This document shows, one piece after another, positions 17,467 through 51,335 of a stretch of DNA of 64,000 bases. The translations under genes and the position numbers were made by a program. Below the pieces are notes generated by a model. That model had not been told where the DNA came from and ran no database searches. It was given only the letters and a program-made list of their open reading frames with translations. The stretch is from a virus, in the IMG/VR virus record IMGVR_UViG_3300042291_000666, positions 1 through 64,000 of that record, one strand, 5' to 3'. The number at the start of each line of letters is the position of its first letter. Within the stretch, counting starts at the first letter, position 1.

Positions 17467-19458
17467 TTAAAATAATCTGAGTTGATTTGATGATACAGTT
17501 AGAATATTATTTATTTCATTTTCAATGGCCTGGGTATAATAACCTTTATCAATGTTGTATGTTTCCCATTTGGGTTCCATCTTCATTTTGTTAAAGATTG
17601 CCTGTATCCATTTTCCTGCTTCTAATTGTATTTCTCTTTTGTCAACCCTGTTTACCTTTATAATCTTAACTCCAGTTCTAGATATGTAATATCTATTAAT
17701 TTTTTGAAGCTCATCTTCTACAAAAGTACCTTCTTTAATTGATCTGGCCACACATTTCCAATCACCATTTGATTTACTACCAATACAATAATCAAGTATG
17801 TTTTTGTTTTGTTCTAAATAATCTTCAGGAAGAACATTATGTACAAAATACTGATATATTGCTTTTGGTATAACCAACTTTGATTTGTTTTTATGTAACT
17901 GCAGATCATGAAAATCAAATCTACCTTTTAACTTCACAGGAGCATAGCTAAATTTGTCATTTTCCACTTTAAATAAATAATGCGGATCAGATTGTTTGAT
18001 TGCTCTCCATCTTGTAATGTCAACTTCTTTGTAATCATTAATGCCAATGTAATTGTTTACATCTCCAAGTACCAATTTTTGGTATTGGTCATGTTCCAAA
18101 GACAAATTGGTGGTTTCTTCCCACTCTTTACAGATAAGCATATATTCATCATAGTACTTTCTAGGTATTAATGTCTCAACACCATCTGTATTATGTAATA
18201 ATGCTACTGCACCGGGGATTCTTTCCATGATTTGCTCATAAAGCATCATCAAAGTTAACTGACCATTGATTGTAATCTTCATACATAACTCAGGATCATA
18301 AAAGAAGCTGTTTTCATCATTGCTAAGACCAAAAGTAGAGTTAAGTATAATCTTGTATACATAGTTCATTGGATTGCTCTTAGGGATCTTCTTACGCTCT
18401 TCAAAGAACCATTCATATTGATCACAGAATGCATCAACAGGAAAGTGTCCCGGAGACCATCTATTTCTAATTGCAAGATTAGGATAAAAACTGGTAACAT
18501 CTGAAGACATTATAATCATATCTTCAGTGCTTTCATAAACACCTTTCTTTCTTGCACCATGCACACCGCCTAAACCAAAGTCAGTTTTTACATCTCTGTA
18601 ATTCAGACTATATTTAAAACTACCTTTTAGATTCTTTCCATTTATTTCTAATGCATTGAATCTTTGTAGTAAAGTACTAAATTCACTAGAGCTAAACTTT
18701 ATGTATGGTAGAATGATGTCTTTAATCTTGATGATATCTCTATGTGTCCTCATATCCCTTAATTCTTTTTTAGGAATATTAAGTTTTTCAGATAAATAAT
18801 AGCCAAAAAGCTCTTTACTTATCCTTGGTTCTGAGGCACTGAATAGATTAATACCATATGTTTTAGTCAATTCTTTTCTTAATCCTATCTGTGACTTTGA
18901 TCTGTTGTAGATTTCTTTAGTTGACCTTACATCATTAATACAGTATTCTAATATTGTATCAATCTCTTCTTTTGTAGTTATTGCTGACGTATGATGAATA
19001 GGCATTTCAAGAATGTTATCCCAATCCATACTGTATTGAATCCATTTCAAACTAGAACGTTTGGCCGGGTTGTCCCAGTGATGCATTTTAAAGATATCTA
19101 TTTGACCAACTGACATTTTCCATTGAGGATAATCAGCAAACTCTTTTTTGTTGCTTTTTTCTATTGTTCTTTGCGCATATCTGTAAAGAGTATTTGCAAT
19201 TTCACAACCTGAAAGGTCCCACCAATCATCATGATTATCTAATATAAAATGTGTTATCTGAGCATCAAAAGCTAAACCATTATAAGATATGTGCCATTCT
19301 TTGTTGGCTATATTTGTATTTAAAAAACTTACAAGTTTACCTAAATCATTTTGCAGGTCATGAATAACAAAGATTTCTGTTTCCATAGTCTTATAATCTT
19401 CAAATACACCCGTAAAACAATTAGATAATGTTTCATAATCCATCACCCAGTGCTTCAT
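17467..19458 (-). CDS. polB: DNA polymerase family B (crAss-type)
   Basis: Exonuclease motifs DYET, YNGLAFD, YCINDV; polymerase motifs SDVTSFYP, KIILNSTFG, NTDG. Confidence 0.93.
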   Translation of the reverse strand: MKHWVMDYETLSNCFTGVFEDYKTMETEIFVIHDLQNDLGKLVSFLNTNIANKEWHISYNGLAFDAQITHFILDNHDDWWDLSGCEIANTLYRYAQRTIEKSNKKEFADYPQWKMSVGQIDIFKMHHWDNPAKRSSLKWIQYSMDWDNILEMPIHHTSAITTKEEIDTILEYCINDVRSTKEIYNRSKSQIGLRKELTKTYGINLFSASEPRISKELFGYYLSEKLNIPKKELRDMRTHRDIIKIKDIILPYIKFSSSEFSTLLQRFNALEINGKNLKGSFKYSLNYRDVKTDFGLGGVHGARKKGVYESTEDMIIMSSDVTSFYPNLAIRNRWSPGHFPVDAFCDQYEWFFEERKKIPKSNPMNYVYKIILNSTFGLSNDENSFFYDPELCMKITINGQLTLMMLYEQIMERIPGAVALLHNTDGVETLIPRKYYDEYMLICKEWEETTNLSLEHDQYQKLVLGDVNNYIGINDYKEVDITRWRAIKQSDPHYLFKVENDKFSYAPVKLKGRFDFHDLQLHKNKSKLVIPKAIYQYFVHNVLPEDYLEQNKNILDYCIGSKSNGDWKCVARSIKEGTFVEDELQKINRYYISRTGVKIIKVNRVDKREIQLEAGKWIQAIFNKMKMEPKWETYNIDKGYYTQAIENEINNILTVSSNQLRLF

Positions 19459-19529
19459 ATTTTATTTTTTAAGCAAAAAAAAAGACATACGTTAATACAT
19501 CTTCTTTCTTGAATTAATAATTAATTAGA

Positions 19530-19946
19530 TTATGCTTGCAATATGATGTTAGATTTTTTAGTTTCCTTAATTTCTACAAAATATGCTTTGTAATCAAAAG
19601 AAGCTGCATTAATACCAAACAAATTAATGAATGTTTCAATATCTTCTTTTTCAGTTAGATAAAATTCAGAAAAAGTATCAACTAATCTTCTTTCTTCTTT
19701 AACTGTTTTACCAGTCTGTGGATTTGGAGTTTTTAGTTTAATTGGTTGACCATCATCATCTAGTTTTGCAACCATATGGTATGATTGTTTTAATACTTTA
19801 CTGATTACAGCTAAAATGCCTGACGCGGGGTCATACATAGCTTCAACATATGGTGAGTCAATGCTCACAGGAATCATGGTAAAAGATTTGGCATTTCTGA
19901 AACTAGATGTTACCAGCATCATGTTTTGCCCAATTGGTTGTGACAT
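19530..19946 (-). CDS. hypothetical protein in the replication module
   Basis: ORF track; preceded by TATCTTTG on the minus strand. Confidence 0.7.
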   Translation of the reverse strand: MSQPIGQNMMLVTSSFRNAKSFTMIPVSIDSPYVEAMYDPASGILAVISKVLKQSYHMVAKLDDDGQPIKLKTPNPQTGKTVKEERRLVDTFSEFYLTEKEDIETFINLFGINAASFDYKAYFVEIKETKKSNIILQA

Positions 19947-19956
19947 ATTGTTAATT

Positions 19957-20538
19957 TTAATTTTTCAAAGATATAGAACTATTTTTAATTTTTTCACAAA
20001 ATAGTTCACTTTTTTTAAAGTAAAGAGTTTCTTTCTCTAAATCTGGAATACTGCAAACTTCAAAAACCTCTTCAATTTGTTTTAAAGGAACATCTAAGGC
20101 TTCCGCATAAAGTTTATGTGCTGAATTAGGTGACAAAAATAAACTGACATATTCTGAAATATTACCTTTATTACCAAAAAAATCTAAGATTATGATTTTT
20201 GTATCTAAACTAAATTTAGAATACTGCCCATCAATAAATCTTTTAAAATCTGATTTGTATTGGGTGAAATCAAAGATAAATAAGTGTCTATTTTCATCAA
20301 GTTGTACATATTCATAAAACAACGGGTGCTTTTTAAGATATGAATTGCAAAACAATTCAAACTTTTCTGATGTACCTACATTGTACTCACACAAAAACTT
20401 ATTTTCATCAGTAGTAATCAAGTGCTCCCAGCAGACATAAGTCTGCACGGGAACAAATGATAAACCAGATCTAAACCTTAATAAAGGATAAAGAAATACT
20501 TTACTTTTTTGAAAATATTCAGTGTATACACCCTTCAT
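19957..20538 (-). CDS. hypothetical protein
   Basis: ORF track; coupled to the upstream nuclease gene. Confidence 0.7.
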   Translation of the reverse strand: MKGVYTEYFQKSKVFLYPLLRFRSGLSFVPVQTYVCWEHLITTDENKFLCEYNVGTSEKFELFCNSYLKKHPLFYEYVQLDENRHLFIFDFTQYKSDFKRFIDGQYSKFSLDTKIIILDFFGNKGNISEYVSLFLSPNSAHKLYAEALDVPLKQIEEVFEVCSIPDLEKETLYFKKSELFCEKIKNSSISLKN

Positions 20539-20540
20539 AT

Positions 20541-21545
20541 TTATAATTTAATATTCCCTAAAAGGAAATCATAAGGTAATGAATAATTTTTTTCTGTGTA
20601 ATGATAAGCAGCTCTTTCAATTACATCTTCTAATGCACTGGCCCAGCCGTTTAATGTTTCATCAGTAACATCAAAAACATATACTTGATTGTACTTGTCT
20701 ACAACAACAAATTTAAACAAAATATTGTATTCTTGTTCAGTTTCAGCCAAATTTGCAAAAACTAATTTGCAATATATAGCTGCTTGCAACCAATAATTAT
20801 AAAAATCAATGGTTTCTTTGAAGTCTGAAATAGTTTTACCTGTTGTTTTAAGGTCACAGATAGTGACTGTTTTTGTAGAGTGATTAATTTTGTAATAATC
20901 CAGGTAACCATGGAGGCCAAAAGGTCTATCTAATAAATCAGATGTCAAGTATCTTTCTGCATGTGTTTCAATAGGGTCTAACTCAAAATCAGTTTGTACA
21001 TCTTCAAACAAAGACATTACATCTTTATTACTTTTAATGTTTTCAGCCTGATCTTTACATTTTGCTAGCGTATCTCCATCAACTGCATCTTTACTACTGT
21101 TTTTTAAATAGTCCCAATAAGATTCATTGTCTGCATTTTGAATCTTTTCTAACCGGGCATCATCTAACTTAAGTGACTGGTACAAGTTCTGATCAATCAA
21201 TACCTGTAATATTTCTTGTTGAAATGTAGGGTCTTGACTTAATAAACTTGATTCACGGTTACTTGTAGTGTTATACAAAGCATTCAATACTTTGATATTA
21301 CTTTCTGCAGGAAGCTTGCCAGGCAGGATGTTAAACTTATCATTAACTTTATCTGCCTCAAATAAGAGACAGTGAATTAACTTACCTTCAACTAAGTGCT
21401 TATCAGTCCGGATTTCACGGTCTTCTAATATATAATCCTTATAAAACAAGGATGGTGAAAACAATAACTTATTCAGTGATGAATAACTAAATTTAAAGTT
21501 TTTATTTGAATAAAACTTTTCTTCTTTTGTTAAATCTGTATACAT
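20541..21545 (-). CDS. PD-(D/E)XK exonuclease (RecE/DUF3799-like)
   Basis: FSYSSL, GKLIH, GYLD..ICDLKTT, YWLQAAIY. Confidence 0.85.
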   Translation of the reverse strand: MYTDLTKEEKFYSNKNFKFSYSSLNKLLFSPSLFYKDYILEDREIRTDKHLVEGKLIHCLLFEADKVNDKFNILPGKLPAESNIKVLNALYNTTSNRESSLLSQDPTFQQEILQVLIDQNLYQSLKLDDARLEKIQNADNESYWDYLKNSSKDAVDGDTLAKCKDQAENIKSNKDVMSLFEDVQTDFELDPIETHAERYLTSDLLDRPFGLHGYLDYYKINHSTKTVTICDLKTTGKTISDFKETIDFYNYWLQAAIYCKLVFANLAETEQEYNILFKFVVVDKYNQVYVFDVTDETLNGWASALEDVIERAAYHYTEKNYSLPYDFLLGNIKL

Positions 21546-22696
21546 TCTTTTTTTTCTATTATTGTGTTTTTATATTTGTCTACTAAGTAAATAGATTCTA
21601 GATCTATTGAGAACACATTGTTTTTACAACCAAAAGTGTTTTTAATTACAGAATCATACATCTTTTTAATTGTTTTTTTAACAATAAAGTCTGTTAACTT
21701 ATTTTCTGCTTCTAATAACTGTACATACTGATCATATGCCCACTGACGGTTGTTGTCTTTACTACCTGAAAACTTCTCAAGTCTTTTACGTAATGTTTTT
21801 ACATTGATGTTATTCCAGTTGTTAGTGTCTTTGAACCAATCATAGTACCAAAAGAATAAGTAGCTAACAATATCAAATGACTCTTCAACATTACAATTGG
21901 CTAGCATTTCTACAGCCAAAGTTCTGTTGTCTTTGTCTTGACTTTGAATCATCTTAGATACCTGATCAAATTGATCTTCACTTATTACAGCTAAATCTTC
22001 TGATATAATCTTGTTGATTTCAACATCTTTTACAATCAATGCTGTTGTATTACGCAATTGATCATATAAAGCTACATTACCATCTCTGACAACCATATCT
22101 CTATTACCATCATGATCAAAATCTGATACTTTACTAGCAATATCATCTGCTACAGGTGATGTATATCTGTAATCTTTAACAACATTGATGCGTATGTAAG
22201 CTTCTTTTTCTACTATAGATAAAAACTCTTTGCATTTATCTAATCCTGATTCAGTTAACTGATCATTTTGTTTTAGCATATTAAATACTTCAAACATTTG
22301 AGGATATGTTAATGATTTACCCCAATCAAGTGTTAGCAAATTTAAAACTAATTTATCTGATACAATATGTATATCTGCTAATTCAGAATCTCTAATGATT
22401 TTCACATTAAATTTTGTTTTAAGCAAATCTACTTTTTGTCTAGGTAATTCTAAATTTGGATATCTATATATTTTTTTATCTTGCAAATCAATTGCTTTAT
22501 CTGAAGTAATTATATTTAGTAGATTGAGTTCATCCTGATCAGGATACCAACTTTTTGCTCTACCAAAATAATAACCATCTTCTTTTAAACTAAAAGATCC
22601 AATACCTAATCTTTCCTTTCCGTTTGACCAGATTGAATTTTCAGCTGAAACAGTTATGTCTAATTTATAATGTTTTTTTTCCATGTTATTTTGCAT
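21530..22696 (-). CDS. hypothetical protein with a BRCT-like segment (paralogue of 22686-23708)
   Basis: KKIYRYPNLELPRQKVDLLKTKFNVKIIRDSELADIHIVSD. Confidence 0.6.
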   Translation of the reverse strand: MQNNMEKKHYKLDITVSAENSIWSNGKERLGIGSFSLKEDGYYFGRAKSWYPDQDELNLLNIITSDKAIDLQDKKIYRYPNLELPRQKVDLLKTKFNVKIIRDSELADIHIVSDKLVLNLLTLDWGKSLTYPQMFEVFNMLKQNDQLTESGLDKCKEFLSIVEKEAYIRINVVKDYRYTSPVADDIASKVSDFDHDGNRDMVVRDGNVALYDQLRNTTALIVKDVEINKIISEDLAVISEDQFDQVSKMIQSQDKDNRTLAVEMLANCNVEESFDIVSYLFFWYYDWFKDTNNWNNINVKTLRKRLEKFSGSKDNNRQWAYDQYVQLLEAENKLTDFIVKKTIKKMYDSVIKNTFGCKNNVFSIDLESIYLVDKYKNTIIEKKECIQI

Positions 22697-23708
22697 ATTT
22701 TAAATATTCTGGTTTTACTTGTACTTTAAATACATACAAGTCTCTATTACTAATGTGAATTTCTTTTCTTACAGTTGGTTCTAAATATTTAAAACTAACT
22801 GAATCAAGCTTGCCTTCTTTTTCTAACCAAATAATCATATCATGCGCGCTTTTTCTAGAGAATTTATTGAAGTCAGATTGTTCTAACCAATACTGAACAT
22901 CTTTGTCTCTATTAAAATGATACATGTAACGTTCTGATTTCTGTGCAAACTCCCATAGTAAATGATAGTTTTGTAAGTAATCAATTGTAGGAATAACTTT
23001 TGCAGCTATAGCTCTATCTTCTTCATTATAAGATTGTAAATACTTTTGTATGTCTTCTAATAATGTTTCATCTAAAACTTGTTTATTAGCTGATTCATAA
23101 ATTACTGTATCTACATTAATTGTTCCTATTAAACCTGAATCAACTTTATGTGCAAGATTTATAGCCATACCTTGGATCATCCATTCATCATATAATGAAT
23201 CTCCTGTAATACAATTATAATATCTTACTTTGCTAGCTAAATTACCATCATAAATTACATCTCCTGCATAAGCATCTACAGCTAAAACTGAACCAGCTGT
23301 ACTTTCAAGTGTTTGATAATTCCATAACTTGGCCATTAATACAGTTGACTTAATATTTTCTCCACTTTCAAATCTTTCATAGATATCATCATGGGTAATA
23401 ATTAAATCAGCTAATTCATAGTCATTGGTTACAGATATACCATGTTCTTTTAGAGCAGATTTGATTCTATCTAATGAAACATTACATTTTGGCAATACAA
23501 ATGCTTTCTTTTTGGTTTTAAAAGTTGTACTATCTTCAGTACTATTTGTTAATATATCACGTATTTTTAAAAATGTTGTTTCATCTTGAGTGACTAATAC
23601 TTGTTCTATCACATTGGATGATAGCACCCCATAATAAGGGGCACTATCTAATCCAAAATGATTTAAAGCAGTAGTATCATATGATTGATAAACTGATTTA
23701 CTTGCCAT
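22686..23708 (-). CDS. hypothetical protein with a BRCT-like segment
   Basis: KKAFVLPKCNVSLDRIKSALKEHGISVTNDYELADLIITHD. Confidence 0.6.
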   Translation of the reverse strand: MASKSVYQSYDTTALNHFGLDSAPYYGVLSSNVIEQVLVTQDETTFLKIRDILTNSTEDSTTFKTKKKAFVLPKCNVSLDRIKSALKEHGISVTNDYELADLIITHDDIYERFESGENIKSTVLMAKLWNYQTLESTAGSVLAVDAYAGDVIYDGNLASKVRYYNCITGDSLYDEWMIQGMAINLAHKVDSGLIGTINVDTVIYESANKQVLDETLLEDIQKYLQSYNEEDRAIAAKVIPTIDYLQNYHLLWEFAQKSERYMYHFNRDKDVQYWLEQSDFNKFSRKSAHDMIIWLEKEGKLDSVSFKYLEPTVRKEIHISNRDLYVFKVQVKPEYLKYAK

Positions 23709-23709
23709 T

Positions 23710-24981
23710 TTATTTCATTGTCATTTTGATGATATCTGGATTCATCATCATTTTGTTAAACTTCTGTTTGTTACCATTGAAGATTGTACGTACAATTAGA
23801 TACTTAAGATCATTAGTGAAATAGTCTTTAGTACAAAGAGAAATCAATCTGTCTGATACTTTTTGGTTTACAGTATTGTCTTTACTGTAAACAACTGAAT
23901 AGTTAGCCAACCTTGTTGCTAATGTAGCAGCAATGTCTGCGCGGTATGTATCATCTTTTCCAATACAACCTCTTAACTCACCAAGGATATATGATTCATT
24001 ATCATGAGTCAACAAATCTTTAGGTGTTACCAGTTTGTCCAGCTTATTGTTAATAAATGTAGTAAACATAGAAGCAAAAGCATCTCCAACAGAACCTTCA
24101 CCAATCATTTGAATTAATGATAAGTTTGATTCAAAGTTCTCAAAGCTAGATATAGCATTAAAGAATGTTGTAATAGATCTTGCATTTGTTTCTAGTGTAA
24201 CTAACTCTGGGTGTAACAACAAAAAGTTGATACATCTTGAGTCAATACCTGCTTCTTCTGCCCATTGTGCCCATACATTAACATCAAACTTAAGGTTTGC
24301 TGTAACGTATCTGGTTTTTTGTGCAGCATCCACTGAGTTTACCATATACTCACCATTGTCTGGGTTTGCTGTTAATATGATATGCCAATCTTTTGGTAAT
24401 ACCCAAGAGATATAAGTTTGTCTATCTATTAACTCCATAACTGCTTGAATAAATCTTGTGTCAGCTCTATTCCAGTCATCTAGTAATAAGATACCGCCAT
24501 CTTTTTTATCAGCAATCCACTCCGGTGGGCAATAAGACATCCTGTTCTTACCTGTCATTTTATATCCTGTTTTAAGATATTCTTGAACTGCAAGTTCATC
24601 AACCCATAAACCAACTTTTTTGGTTACTGCTGTTTGAATATTAGCAAGGTCTGATGACGCAGCTGATCTTTGTGCTGCGGTATAGGATAAATCATCTATT
24701 TTTGGTTCTGAAACTCTTGTTTCTTTATACATTTGAAATTGACGTACTGGGAATCCTACTAAGTCACCCAACTCTTCTATCTGTGCAAGGTTAACCTTAA
24801 CAAAGTTTAAGTTGTTTTCTTTAGCTAGCTCAACAATGGTAGATGTTTTACCAATTCCTGATTCTCCTAATACTTCTACTGATACAGATTGTTTACCTTG
24901 TGCTTGTAAAAATCTATTGTTTGTAATAATGTGATTTACAAACCCTTTTAATTCTGTTACATTTAAATTTACTTGTGCCAT
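23710..24981 (-). CDS. MoxR-like AAA+ ATPase
   Basis: Walker A GESGIGKT, Walker B LLLDDWNRA, TANP sensor, DAAQKTR. Confidence 0.88.
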   Translation of the reverse strand: MAQVNLNVTELKGFVNHIITNNRFLQAQGKQSVSVEVLGESGIGKTSTIVELAKENNLNFVKVNLAQIEELGDLVGFPVRQFQMYKETRVSEPKIDDLSYTAAQRSAASSDLANIQTAVTKKVGLWVDELAVQEYLKTGYKMTGKNRMSYCPPEWIADKKDGGILLLDDWNRADTRFIQAVMELIDRQTYISWVLPKDWHIILTANPDNGEYMVNSVDAAQKTRYVTANLKFDVNVWAQWAEEAGIDSRCINFLLLHPELVTLETNARSITTFFNAISSFENFESNLSLIQMIGEGSVGDAFASMFTTFINNKLDKLVTPKDLLTHDNESYILGELRGCIGKDDTYRADIAATLATRLANYSVVYSKDNTVNQKVSDRLISLCTKDYFTNDLKYLIVRTIFNGNKQKFNKMMMNPDIIKMTMK

Positions 24982-24992
24982 CTTTGTTTTTA

Positions 24993-26153
24993 TTAATTTA
25001 ATTTTATTACTTTTCCTGGTAATTCTTCATTCATAGTAGATATACTACTCAATACCCATAAGGCATTGTTTGGACATCCTGATGGAGCATATGCTTCACC
25101 ATCTGTTAAATATATTAGTGCTGTATAACACTTCTTTTCATTATAATGGTCAATTACAGGTTGGAAACTTGTTCCACCTCTACCATGTATAGCCCAATCT
25201 TTTTTTGGATTAAACTCTTCTACAGAATTAAGTCTTGTATCACATTGAGCTACTGTAATCTTATGACCAGTTTTACTCATATGATGTAACTCATTGTAAA
25301 ACTCTTTAAGCTCTTCTGTATTTACAGATCCAGATGTGTCAATACCAACAAGAATGTGATTTTTAAATTTAATCTTCAATCCTGGGTTTTCTGCATATCT
25401 TTTATTGTATTTACGTCTCAACTTTTTAGTGTATACTACAGATGAGTTTCCAACAAATCTTCTTAAGTAAGCTTTCCAATCAAATTTAGCTGGCTCAACA
25501 TGAAATAACTTTGCAATTAATTCACTTAACTCACCAGGTACATTTCCTTGTTTCTTTACAGTTTGTTCTGCAGCTTCTTTTAACTGATGGTCTATTTGTT
25601 TTTGAACAAGTTTTTTATCAGCTTCAGGTAACTCATCAAATTCTTTCCACGTACTGTGGCAATACTCTGATTCACCATCCATTTGATCCATTAATGAATC
25701 TAATGAAGGAGATGTTCCATCTTGTTTAGCTTGTTCCAACAAATTGTAATAGACTTTAGTCCCTGCTTTTGTAGGAAGATTTAATTCAGGAAAACTACTT
25801 AGTAATAATCCACCGTCTGGTAGCATGTTTGAACTAATATATTGATTGATCTCTAGATCTGCAGCTATATTAAATAACTTGTGATCAGAATAAAGATCTC
25901 TCATCAATAGATGTCCAAATGCTATATGTAATAATTCATGCTTAATCAATCCAACTCTATGTAATTCACTTAGTTCAGTGAAGAAATTAGGGTTAATTGT
26001 TAACTGCATACCAATTCCGTGTTTACTTACACCTGCTGTAGGTATACGTTCACTGAATTGTTTATTTATACCAATTAAAAAAAGCCCGTAAAAGGGCTCA
26101 TCTAAAATTAAAGTCTTGGTGGTTCTTGCAACACCATCTTGTATATTTATCAT
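24993..26153 (-). CDS. DUF2201-like metallopeptidase plus VWA domain protein
   Basis: HELLH zinc motif, NIAADLEIN; MIDAS DTSGS, GGT.F, LTDG. Confidence 0.9.
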   Translation of the reverse strand: MINIQDGVARTTKTLILDEPFYGLFLIGINKQFSERIPTAGVSKHGIGMQLTINPNFFTELSELHRVGLIKHELLHIAFGHLLMRDLYSDHKLFNIAADLEINQYISSNMLPDGGLLLSSFPELNLPTKAGTKVYYNLLEQAKQDGTSPSLDSLMDQMDGESEYCHSTWKEFDELPEADKKLVQKQIDHQLKEAAEQTVKKQGNVPGELSELIAKLFHVEPAKFDWKAYLRRFVGNSSVVYTKKLRRKYNKRYAENPGLKIKFKNHILVGIDTSGSVNTEELKEFYNELHHMSKTGHKITVAQCDTRLNSVEEFNPKKDWAIHGRGGTSFQPVIDHYNEKKCYTALIYLTDGEAYAPSGCPNNALWVLSSISTMNEELPGKVIKLN

Positions 26154-26452
26154 TTTTGTGGGTATAATATTTTTAATAATATTTTTTTGTAAACAACATA
26201 ATCTCCAAATTCTTTTATTGTAGAGTTAATGTTTTTACTAACTAATTCTTCTGGTAAATAACCTTTATCAATAGCTCTTAAAAAACGTGTTCTTTTATCA
26301 AACAACAATGATTTAGTAAATAATAAATCTAATATATCTCTGTCATCAAAATCTAAGTTTTTGTAGTTTTCAAAAGCTAATTCAAAGTCTTCACCAAGAC
26401 CCATAAACATTTCACGTAATGAAAAAAATTCTTTAATTGTTATCCTTGCCAT
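26150..26452 (-). CDS. hypothetical protein
   Basis: Overlaps both neighbours. Confidence 0.65.
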   Translation of the reverse strand: MARITIKEFFSLREMFMGLGEDFELAFENYKNLDFDDRDILDLLFTKSLLFDKRTRFLRAIDKGYLPEELVSKNINSTIKEFGDYVVYKKILLKILYPQK

Positions 26453-26816
26453 CTGGTAAAATTTCTATAATTACTCCAGGATTAACTTTGTCATATTTGT
26501 ACTCTACAAATACAGGCAATATACAATCTGCATTATCATCTTCAATCCAACCAAATGTAACCATATCATCTTGCACTGTTTGTGCGGGATTAATATAATC
26601 AAACTTGTGTTTGCTGCCTCTGATAAATGTAAACTGGATACTTACGGGTTGTTGATGTTTGGCCAACTCAGCTTTAAACTCTTCTGCATACAATGCATAA
26701 TAATCTTTAGCTACTTTTCTATAATTTACAACAGTTTTACTTGCTATAAAATACTTGCCGGTCCATCTTCTACCATTTTTACTACTTGGGACTGAGCCCG
26801 GTATGAACCATTTCAT
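26433..26816 (-). CDS. RusA-like Holliday junction resolvase
   Basis: PSSKN...FDYIN....VQDDM....IEDDN motif pattern. Confidence 0.75.
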   Translation of the reverse strand: MKWFIPGSVPSSKNGRRWTGKYFIASKTVVNYRKVAKDYYALYAEEFKAELAKHQQPVSIQFTFIRGSKHKFDYINPAQTVQDDMVTFGWIEDDNADCILPVFVEYKYDKVNPGVIIEILPDGKDNN

Positions 26817-26819
26817 TTT

Positions 26820-27794
26820 TTATCTGTTTAAAATTTCTTTAAGTAAAGGTTTTAATGTTTGATGTACTATATCAAAACCATGTTCACGCATAGAGTCACT
26901 AATATCTTTAGATAAAGGTAAAGCAAAGCCATCTAGATTGTATAAGGTTTTATACTTATCAATTGCTAGATTACCTGCAGTATCATTATCAAAGAATGTG
27001 ACTATCTTCTTATATTTCTTTTTTAGGTGCTCAATAACATGGGGTTTTATGATTGTATTCTCACTGTCTGGTGCTAATACTTCAATGTTATAACCAATAC
27101 TTTTAAGGCATAAGGCATCTTTTAATGATGAACAAATTACTAAATAAGGTTGATTGTAAGTTAATTGATCAAATCCCTGAAGGTATGGTTTTACTTTATG
27201 AAATTTGTGTTTACTTGATGGTTGATATATTTTATACAACTCATCATTTTTATCAAAATATCCATATATAGAATGACCTTCAATCTTTAACTTCTTAACT
27301 TCACCATCTTCTTCTTTAATTAAATTGTAATACTCAATAGGTTTTACATTATATTCTTTCAATAAATTTGAACCAATTCTAAAGCTTAACCAATATCTAC
27401 CATCATTTTCAGTCCATTGTCTTGTATTGACAAAATCAATTTCCCATTTTGCTTGAGGTTTAAAAGATACTTGCTCAAAGTCAGTTGTTTTAACATAACT
27501 ATTGTAATCCTCTACTATTTTTCTAACAGCATCTCTGTATTCTAAGTCAAACATAAGTTTAACCAAGTCTATTTTGTTACCATTTTTACCAGTTGAAAAG
27601 TCCTTAAATTTATACATACCTATAGATTTATCTACATATATACAAAAGCTAGGAGTTTTGTCATTTGGATTAAAGATTGATTTAATCTTTACATCCTGAC
27701 CTGTTAAGGGTTCTGATAAGTTTAAATAATATTGAAACACCCAATAGCTTGGAACATCTGTTTCTTCTAGTACTAAATTTTTTGTGTTAAACAT
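26820..27794 (-). CDS. dnaG: DNA primase (TOPRIM, crAss-type)
   Basis: N-terminal DKTPSF..FKDFSTG; TOPRIM ICSSLKDAL, FFDNDTAG, KDISD. Confidence 0.85.
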   Translation of the reverse strand: MFNTKNLVLEETDVPSYWVFQYYLNLSEPLTGQDVKIKSIFNPNDKTPSFCIYVDKSIGMYKFKDFSTGKNGNKIDLVKLMFDLEYRDAVRKIVEDYNSYVKTTDFEQVSFKPQAKWEIDFVNTRQWTENDGRYWLSFRIGSNLLKEYNVKPIEYYNLIKEEDGEVKKLKIEGHSIYGYFDKNDELYKIYQPSSKHKFHKVKPYLQGFDQLTYNQPYLVICSSLKDALCLKSIGYNIEVLAPDSENTIIKPHVIEHLKKKYKKIVTFFDNDTAGNLAIDKYKTLYNLDGFALPLSKDISDSMREHGFDIVHQTLKPLLKEILNR

Positions 27795-27814
27795 ATTAAG
27801 AATATAAATAAAAA

Positions 27815-27842
27815 TGGGACTGACATATCTCAGTCAGCCCCA
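27815..27842 (-). terminator. probable intrinsic terminator
   Basis: TGGG.CTGA...TCAG.CCCA stem with a T-run on the minus strand. Confidence 0.5.
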
Positions 27843-27857
27843 TAATTAAGTTAGTTA

Positions 27858-51056: not shown

Positions 51057-51335
51057 ATGATACAACAAGTAATACCAGTAGGAAAAAAGTTATTGATTAA
51101 ACAAAAGAAAGCTGAAGCATTTTTTAAAAACACAAATATTATTATACCTGAAGCTGCCCAAAAAGTGGAAAACAAAGGTACTGTAGTAGCTGTAGGTGAA
51201 GGTGTTACAGAAATTAAAATAGGAGATGTAGTTCAATATAGTGAGCATTGCTTACCAACATCCATGATGCATGATGAAGAAGAACATTTACTGATTCATG
51301 AGGGTGATGTATTTGCAAAATTTAAGTATGTATAG
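51057..51335 (+). CDS. groES: co-chaperonin GroES
   Basis: PVGKKLLIK...IIIPE...GTVVAVGEG...IKIGDVV...LIHEGDVFA. Confidence 0.9.
   Translation: MIQQVIPVGKKLLIKQKKAEAFFKNTNIIIPEAAQKVENKGTVVAVGEGVTEIKIGDVVQYSEHCLPTSMMHDEEEHLLIHEGDVFAKFKYV

Follow-up and report, generated by a model that had tools for sequence, protein, structure and literature searches.

We describe here a five-gene cassette from a bacteriophage in which a predicted AAA+ ATPase and a predicted zincin metallopeptidase carrying a von Willebrand factor A (vWA) domain are bracketed by genes for three further proteins that, judged from profile comparisons, belong to a single family. The cassette lies in a 64,000-nucleotide stretch of DNA (positions 1 to 64,000 of IMG/VR virus record IMGVR_UViG_3300042291_000666), hereafter the window; the record is complete, at 118,325 bp, and has direct terminal repeats, and the window covers its first 64 kb. 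All five genes are on the minus strand and, in the order in which they would be transcribed, they encode a small hairpin protein of 100 residues (26150..26452), the zincin-vWA protein of 386 residues (24993..26153), the AAA+ ATPase of 423 residues (23710..24981), partner protein A of 340 residues (22686..23708) and partner protein B of 388 residues (21530..22696). The last four had been proposed in a first-pass annotation, made from the letters of the DNA without database searches, and the four open reading frames (ORFs) are present on that strand as it placed them. The ATPase and zincin-vWA protein constitute a pair that is already known (N4 gp24/gp25 type; PHROG 1297 and 1314; DUF2201_N/DUF2201). 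The partner family, on the other hand, is undescribed, and both the family and its association with the pair are absent from the libraries and literature that we searched. We tentatively favor the explanation that the three flanking proteins are lineage-specific adaptors or substrates of the pair, for which the hairpin they have in common would be the docking element.

Homology and predicted folds of the partner proteins

The first-pass annotation had claimed that A and B resemble each other in two regions, and it had posed this similarity beforehand as something that profile methods could refute. A direct comparison of A with B by BLASTP was not significant (E 0.2), and shallow profiles made from close homologues aligned weakly (hhalign 11.8%, E 0.0025). 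A deeper A profile of 65 sequences aligned with the B profile at 90.7% and an E of 1.3e-6 over 235 columns (A 64-304, B 71-341), a span that includes both of the motif regions previously named. When the A profile was searched against 1.84 billion cluster representatives it matched 235 proteins at E ≤ 0.001, among which is a group of proteins of 347-399 residues, here termed group C, with many members that the B profile matches as well. The group C profile aligned with the B profile at 98.3% (E 2.3e-14, 311 columns) and in the phage's own genome it matched A (1.5e-42), B (2.8e-13) and nothing else. Because the deep profiles align and the group C profile finds just these two proteins in the genome, we consider that, by the measure of profile similarity, A and B are true paralogues, and the claimed similarity has withstood the comparison that could have removed it. 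Both types are present in loci whose family B DNA polymerase (PolB) is 51-56% identical to that of the window and, therefore, the A/B duplication is old.

A third member of the family was found on the other side of the pair. In locus L081 a 139-residue protein encoded just upstream of the vWA gene matches the group C profile over the hairpin region. We aligned 27 sequences from the position upstream of the vWA gene, with the product of 26150-26452 in the window among them, and the resulting profile aligned with that of group C at 95.0% (E 3.7e-8, 70 columns) and with that of B at 54.7% (E 1.2e-4). The shared element is a HEAT-type hairpin, roughly Y..h..ML.S.D..N..LA.E.L.N, which is the second of the two motifs that the first-pass annotation had seen in A and B. 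That annotation had described a module of four genes; those four are real, but since 26150-26452 also carries the hairpin, the profile matches make the module one of five genes, with hairpin-bearing genes on either side of the ATPase/vWA pair. By the same matches the small protein, A and B are a homologous partner family.

Several searches for these proteins and their locus returned nothing. When 50,697 phage records were searched by tblastn, A, B, the ATPase and two group C proteins were without a match; the locus had none by blastn, and for A and B there was none at E ≤ 10 in sequence and profile searches of the PDB. Single-protein searches yielded no loci in viral contigs for P0362, P0329 and P0291 and no loci in genome contigs for P0361. 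The literature search, which had most subscription journals outside its coverage, returned no paper joining BRCT-like proteins to a MoxR/vWA pair, and the term “BRCT” occurs zero times in PMC7159879 and PMC7824862.

AlphaFold models were obtained for A, with a predicted local distance difference test score (pLDDT) of 95.6 and a predicted template modeling score (pTM) of 0.85, and for B (pLDDT 86.4, pTM 0.65). In its model, A is predicted to have a beta/alpha unit at its N terminus, followed by a BRCT-like domain into which a beta-rich subdomain is inserted (residues ~61-207) and a HEAT/ARM-like helical domain (~208-340). B, which is a fast-evolving paralogue of A, would have the same architecture, with its BRCT-like region at ~70-234 and its helical region at ~240-376. 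The structural hit lists for the two models are dominated by BRCT domains at middling Z scores, up to 7.2 for A and, in rows named as BRCT, up to 6.0 for B. In the alignments with the BRCT domains of XRCC1, TopBP1, BRCA1 and RFC p140 and with the SMARCC1 N-terminal module, the 61-84 residues that align are distributed across 140-165 residues of the A and B models, and for this reason we consider that the BRCT-like domain holds an insert of ~90 residues, which in the models is positioned between the beta-alpha-beta-beta first half and the last strand and helix. Pfam BRCT did not match A or B themselves, its only matches in the family being sub-threshold ones in four of 65 A-family members (best E 0.02) and one of 33 group C members (E 0.0043), and Foldseek of the full models of A and B against the PDB gave no match at E ≤ 0.001. 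The BRCT domain that the first-pass annotation had read from the sequence is, consequently, supported as a likeness of fold in the predicted models, but it is a split domain that falls below the Pfam threshold.

Against the viral structure library BFVD, Foldseek matched the model of A to four uncharacterized proteins of 360-396 residues (E 3.2e-7 to 1.4e-5, probability 1.00), which come from CrAss-like virus sp. ctYsL76, Podoviridae sp. ctz6O13 (two proteins) and an uncultured Caudovirales phage. These are whole-protein matches with template modeling (TM) scores of 0.30-0.40 and just 8-14% identity, and Podoviridae sp. ctz6O13 has two A-like proteins in one virus, as does the phage of the window. 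A search of the ESM Atlas with A gave no usable match.

The ATPase/zincin-vWA pair and its known counterparts

The vWA-metallopeptidase and AAA+ domain calls made earlier were borne out by family searches. The zincin-vWA protein matches Pfam DUF2201_N at 67.5 bits (cut-off 23.2), the vWA-like DUF2201 at 57.1 bits (cut-off 26.4) and PHROG 1314 at 2.8e-62. In an alignment of 27 homologues with identity down to 48%, the HELLH motif (H72-E73-x-x-H76) is invariant in all 27, as are the five residues of a complete MIDAS (D272, S274, S276, T328 and D351). The label “HNH endonuclease”, which PHROG 1314 and many matching GenBank phage records give to this protein, looks like a propagated misnomer, since what Pfam detects is a zincin peptidase together with a vWA-like domain.

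The AAA+ ATPase, whose gene adjoins that of the zincin-vWA protein, has a Walker A motif (GESGIGKT) and a Walker B motif (LLLDD) that are conserved in 20/20 sequences, and it matches PHROG 1297 at 2.2e-35. Its Pfam AAA_5 match of 19.1 bits is below the cut-off of 22, and Pfam AAA is also sub-threshold; the homologue in L081 reaches 24.2 bits for AAA_3 (cut-off 27) and 22.6 bits for AAA_5 (cut-off 22). In profile searches the best solved relative is the midasin AAA module (E 1.5e-9), a likeness to midasin/Rea1 that is limited to residues 14-76. By these matches the ATPase is MoxR/midasin-like, and possibly a MoxR protein in the strict sense. Two NCBIfam matches, both sub-threshold, were not used: one to SprT (0.021 in the window, 7.6e-4 in the L081 homologue) and one to the RFC large subunit, which involved the P-loop region only.

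The pair itself is widespread. Homologues of the vWA protein were detected by tblastn in 481 phage records, N4-like and jumbo phages included, and the record of Achromobacter phage JWAlpha links that phage's own ATPase and vWA genes to N4 gp24 and gp25. The N4 gp24/gp25-type pair consists of the same two families as the pair described here, in which HExxH and MIDAS are intact; what differs here is the order, vWA then AAA, and the presence on its flanks of three proteins of an undescribed family. Parts of the article by Iyer et al. (2021; PMC7824862) report that jumbo phages of group 2.2 have a MoxR AAA+ protein paired with a metallopeptidase-vWA protein, propose for this pair a role in virion assembly with proteolytic processing, and cite a MoxR-vWA tail-assembly system of an archaeal virus. 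Similarly, sections of Kaur et al. (2020; PMC7159879) describe MoxR-vWA systems in which the ATPase is linked to its protein target by the vWA protein, and the participation of such systems in biological conflict systems. In cellular MoxR-vWA pairs, as those sections present them, an AAA+ ATPase is likewise coupled to a MIDAS-bearing vWA adaptor that grips the substrate, whereas the phage vWA protein carries a zincin peptidase, and the partner proteins are without counterpart in either the cellular MoxR-vWA or the midasin systems. DUF2201 papers were found in our literature search, none of them functional, and it returned no tested function for the ATPase/vWA pair.

Conservation of the locus

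How constant is the association between the pair and its partners? In a survey of viral contigs we analyzed the best 80 of 206 confirmed loci. A and the ATPase are present in 80/80 of these loci and B and the vWA protein in 75/80 each. B follows A in 75 loci, and the other five contigs end inside A or ≤195 nt past it; vWA precedes AAA in 75 loci, the remaining five beginning inside AAA or, once, 383 nt ahead of it. The order vWA-AAA-A-B is kept in every related locus that extends far enough. Species genomes were also scanned and yielded 10 loci, each of them on a contig from a metagenome-assembled genome (MAG); seven were analyzed and three (L091, L092 and L094) were left out as close relatives (72-82% identity). 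The order is also kept in the distant loci L081, L089, L090, L093, L095 and L099, and in two of these, L095 (10499-11545) and L099 (9568-10335), which represent a divergent lineage, the A-type protein is cut down to its helical C-terminal half (167 residues in L095) and is still in place, with B whole. Endonuclease-like ORFs can be recognized by eye between the genes of the same two loci (HNH-like in L095 and GIY-YIG-like in L099). An apparent AAA-A fusion ORF in L099 was rejected as an artefact of a masked run of N. Contig L098 ends in the vWA gene.

The conserved order extends beyond the cassette. A 12-gene collinear order (Sak4-like, unknown, primase, RusA, small, vWA, AAA, A, B, exonuclease, two unknowns, PolB) is kept in the 80 loci as well as in L081 and L089, which are more distant, down to a PolB identity of 51-56%. 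In the more distant loci of the survey (L019-L080) identity to the window is 82-88% for the ATPase, which is the best-conserved gene of the block, 72-84% for the vWA protein, 69-82% for PolB, 53-59% for A and 29-42% for B, and in loci more distant still B is 24-29% identical where the ATPase is 57-64% identical.

A different context was found in L097, a 172-kb contig of a very distant phage whose vWA protein and ATPase are 35% and 37% identical, respectively, to those of the window. There the pair is surrounded by genes for an anaerobic ribonucleotide reductase, dUTPase, homing endonucleases, an ATP-dependent ligase and thymidylate synthase, and not by primase, RusA, exonuclease and PolB genes, and no other context that we found is independent of the replication block. 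In L097 vWA-AAA is followed by two proteins whose hairpin matches are weaker: one of 318 residues (profiles A2 1.1e-9, A3 1e-7 and A4 1.4e-5), in which a BRCT-like stretch can be discerned by eye, and one of 122 residues (A2 0.0023, A3 0.0017 and A4 1e-5).

In some related loci the genes of the pair are interrupted. The AAA gene is split after residue 173-180, just past Walker B, in 4/80 loci (L009:4500-5572; also L008, L012 and L043) by an insert of ~1.07 kb, not a multiple of three, that has an ORF for a homing endonuclease of the GIY-YIG/NUMOD1 kind (Pfam 4.1e-8 and 2.9e-10) and matches the group I intron RF00028 at 78.8 bits, above the gathering score. In 3/80 loci (L004:3268-4368; also L005 and L006) it is the vWA gene that is interrupted, within the HELLH codons, by ~1.1 kb in which there is an ORF for a LAGLIDADG endonuclease (Pfam 6.5e-8) and a match to a group I intron that is below threshold (40.3 versus 50 bits), and there is a short break at the same HELLH site of the vWA gene in L099 (8246-8507). 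Homing-endonuclease elements typically target conserved functional sites, and we count introns at the HExxH codons and after Walker B in favor of the adaptor-or-substrate explanation. The junction between the two genes also varies: some close relatives have an extra ORF of 128 residues and no known family between vWA and AAA (L009:3578-3964), which in the window are separated by an 11-nt spacer, and vWA/AAA gaps of ~430 nt occur in L003, L004, L010, L015 and others.

In the window the cassette lies, as the first-pass annotation had it, between the primase/resolvase and the exonuclease/PolB genes. The flanking genes, all on the minus strand and assigned by Pfam and PHROG, are those of a DnaG-type primase (26820..27794) and a RusA-like resolvase (26433..26816) upstream and, downstream, a PD-(D/E)XK exonuclease (20541..21545) and PolB (17467..19458), the motifs of which were also read from the sequence; two unknown genes lie between exonuclease and PolB (within 17467..21545). 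AAA and A are 1 nt apart, and there are overlaps of 11 nt between A and B, of 4 nt between the small gene and the vWA gene and of 16 nt between B and the exonuclease gene; the flanking genes are as tightly packed as the four genes first assigned to the module. The start of B is possibly its fifth codon, as in most homologues. A terminator-like hairpin with an 11-bp stem (six GC pairs) and a T run (27814..27843, minus strand) is located between an unknown 225-residue gene and the primase gene, and may mark the upstream start of the transcription unit that holds the module. A terminator consensus scan gave a weak excess, seven sites versus 4.3 expected in shuffles, and a promoter scan was uninformative in that sigma-70-like sites were rarer than in shuffled sequence (72 versus 94.5).

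The source of the window is a phage, and it encodes a ribonucleotide reductase small subunit, MazG, dNMP kinase, PolB, primase, a DnaB-like helicase, a Sak4-like ATPase, terminase, portal and major head protein. A GroES-like co-chaperonin gene (51057-51335; PHROG 3188, 4.5e-15) is directly upstream of, and overlaps, the large terminase gene. The nearest relatives of the large terminase among the 50,697 phage records are those of crAss-like phages (cr1_1, 26% identity) and Flavobacterium FPSV phages (24%), and because of this we treat the phage as a distant marine crAss-like phage. In crAssphage cr1_1 and Flavobacterium phage FPSV-S29, the nearest relatives by terminase, there is no group C-like protein and no DUF2201 vWA domain.

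Possible roles of the partner proteins

A major question arising from these observations is what the three flanking proteins might do for the pair. We lean toward adaptors or substrates because A and B are acidic, have predicted folds of a protein-interaction kind, share one hairpin with the small protein, and travel with the pair. The acidity of A and B (pI 5.2 and 5.3) would fit protein-binding scaffolds or ligands of the MIDAS better than DNA binders. Additionally, we count in favor of this explanation that the catalytic motifs of the pair are intact and invariant, with the ATPase the best-conserved gene, and that hairpin genes are on both sides of the pair in a gene order that is kept. On this explanation the ATPase and zincin-vWA protein of the cassette, five genes in the replication arm of a marine crAss-like phage whose 118-kb genome is complete, would by analogy act as other MoxR-vWA pairs do, the MIDAS gripping a protein and the ATPase supplying force, with the difference that here the protease would sit on the vWA adaptor. 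The HEAT-type hairpin would dock the small protein, A and B to this machine and the BRCT-like domains of A and B would bind its target. From the position of the cassette between the primase/resolvase and the exonuclease/polymerase genes, we presume that the machine would act on a protein complex of phage DNA replication or recombination, assembling it, remodeling it or clearing it. A complex prediction for the vWA domain (residues 236-386), A, B and Mg, in which B was scored, gave 0.02 versus a mark of 0.32, a value that speaks neither for nor against binding.

Several points weigh against this explanation. Gene neighborhood and the shared hairpin are the only ties between A and B and the pair, and of these the neighborhood does not single out the cassette, because in most loci the whole 12-gene block is collinear. 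The context provided by L097 lends modest support, being a single contig with short, modest matches (23.7 bits at best). In L096, a divergent MAG contig of 8.9 kb, there is a vWA gene without an AAA or an A/B match. Furthermore, no A/B or hairpin protein was found near the pair in any of three other lineages (3/3), represented by Moorella phage MTATph1, JWAlpha and Vibrio phage phiTY18, when 253 ORFs from 7 kb on each side of the vWA gene were searched with the HMMER filters off (best E 0.06). The expectation of the first-pass annotation that A and B would co-occur with the pair elsewhere was, therefore, realized in all related loci that reach far enough and in L097, but not in the three other lineages or in L096, and A and B are not universal partners of the pair. 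Finally, a target in replication or recombination is the least certain step of the scheme and would follow from the position of the cassette alone. In Moorella phage MTATph1 a 353-residue hypothetical protein without a match to the A/B profiles is encoded directly downstream of the pair and upstream of a DNA helicase gene (L082:8152-9213).

Could A, B and the small protein instead be independent scaffolds or accessories of the replisome or of recombination, which are beside the pair only through the collinearity of the block? We consider this unlikely, although it is the strongest of the alternatives. It would account for an order that is kept across 12 tightly packed genes down to the most diverged PolB and for the absence of A and B beside the pair in the three other lineages, and BRCT domains are typical of replication and repair scaffolds. 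It would not, however, lead one to expect hairpin genes on both sides of the pair, nor two proteins with weaker hairpin matches after AAA in L097 where the neighbors differ, nor an A-type protein that in L095 and L099 has shrunk to its helical half but stays in position.

Less probable still, in our estimation, is a role in counter-defense or host takeover, in which the ATPase/protease would remove or cleave a host protein recognized by the fast-evolving B (and A). B does evolve far faster than the ATPase, the vWA protein and PolB around it, and the occurrence of MoxR-vWA systems in conflict systems, as covered in sections of Kaur et al. (2020; PMC7159879), would be in keeping with such a role. 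However, fast evolution is equally usual for weakly constrained scaffolds, the cassette is among replication genes and not early host-takeover genes, and PADLOC had no match for the vWA protein, A or B and only a weak BrxF P-loop match for the ATPase (E 0.0025). That the pair is an assembly chaperone and protease for the virion with A and B as assembly scaffolds, along the lines proposed in part of Iyer et al. (2021; PMC7824862) for the pair that jumbo phages of group 2.2 carry, is improbable given that the terminase, portal and capsid genes are ~25 kb away and on the other strand from the cassette, which is part of the replication arm, and that the pairs of JWAlpha and L097 are likewise amid nucleotide-metabolism genes.

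Returning to adaptors or substrates of the pair, a more specific version can be imagined to which we attach only a slim chance. The midasin-like motor and the MIDAS zincin, with its faint likeness to SprT, would form a segregase-protease that is aimed by hairpin-docked BRCT/HEAT adaptors and that strips and cleaves proteins on replicating phage DNA; it could act on proteins that are stalled or cross-linked, on those of the host nucleoid or on defense proteins. If true, such a machine would parallel, in a virus, Cdc48 with Wss1/SPRTN or Rea1 and its assembly factors, and would provide the first function for the N4 gp24/gp25-type pair of hundreds of phages. The cassette adds to the known repertoire of phages a protein family with a predicted BRCT-like fold that is missing from current family libraries, and partners with putative interaction domains and a common hairpin would offer a concrete route to what the pair acts on.

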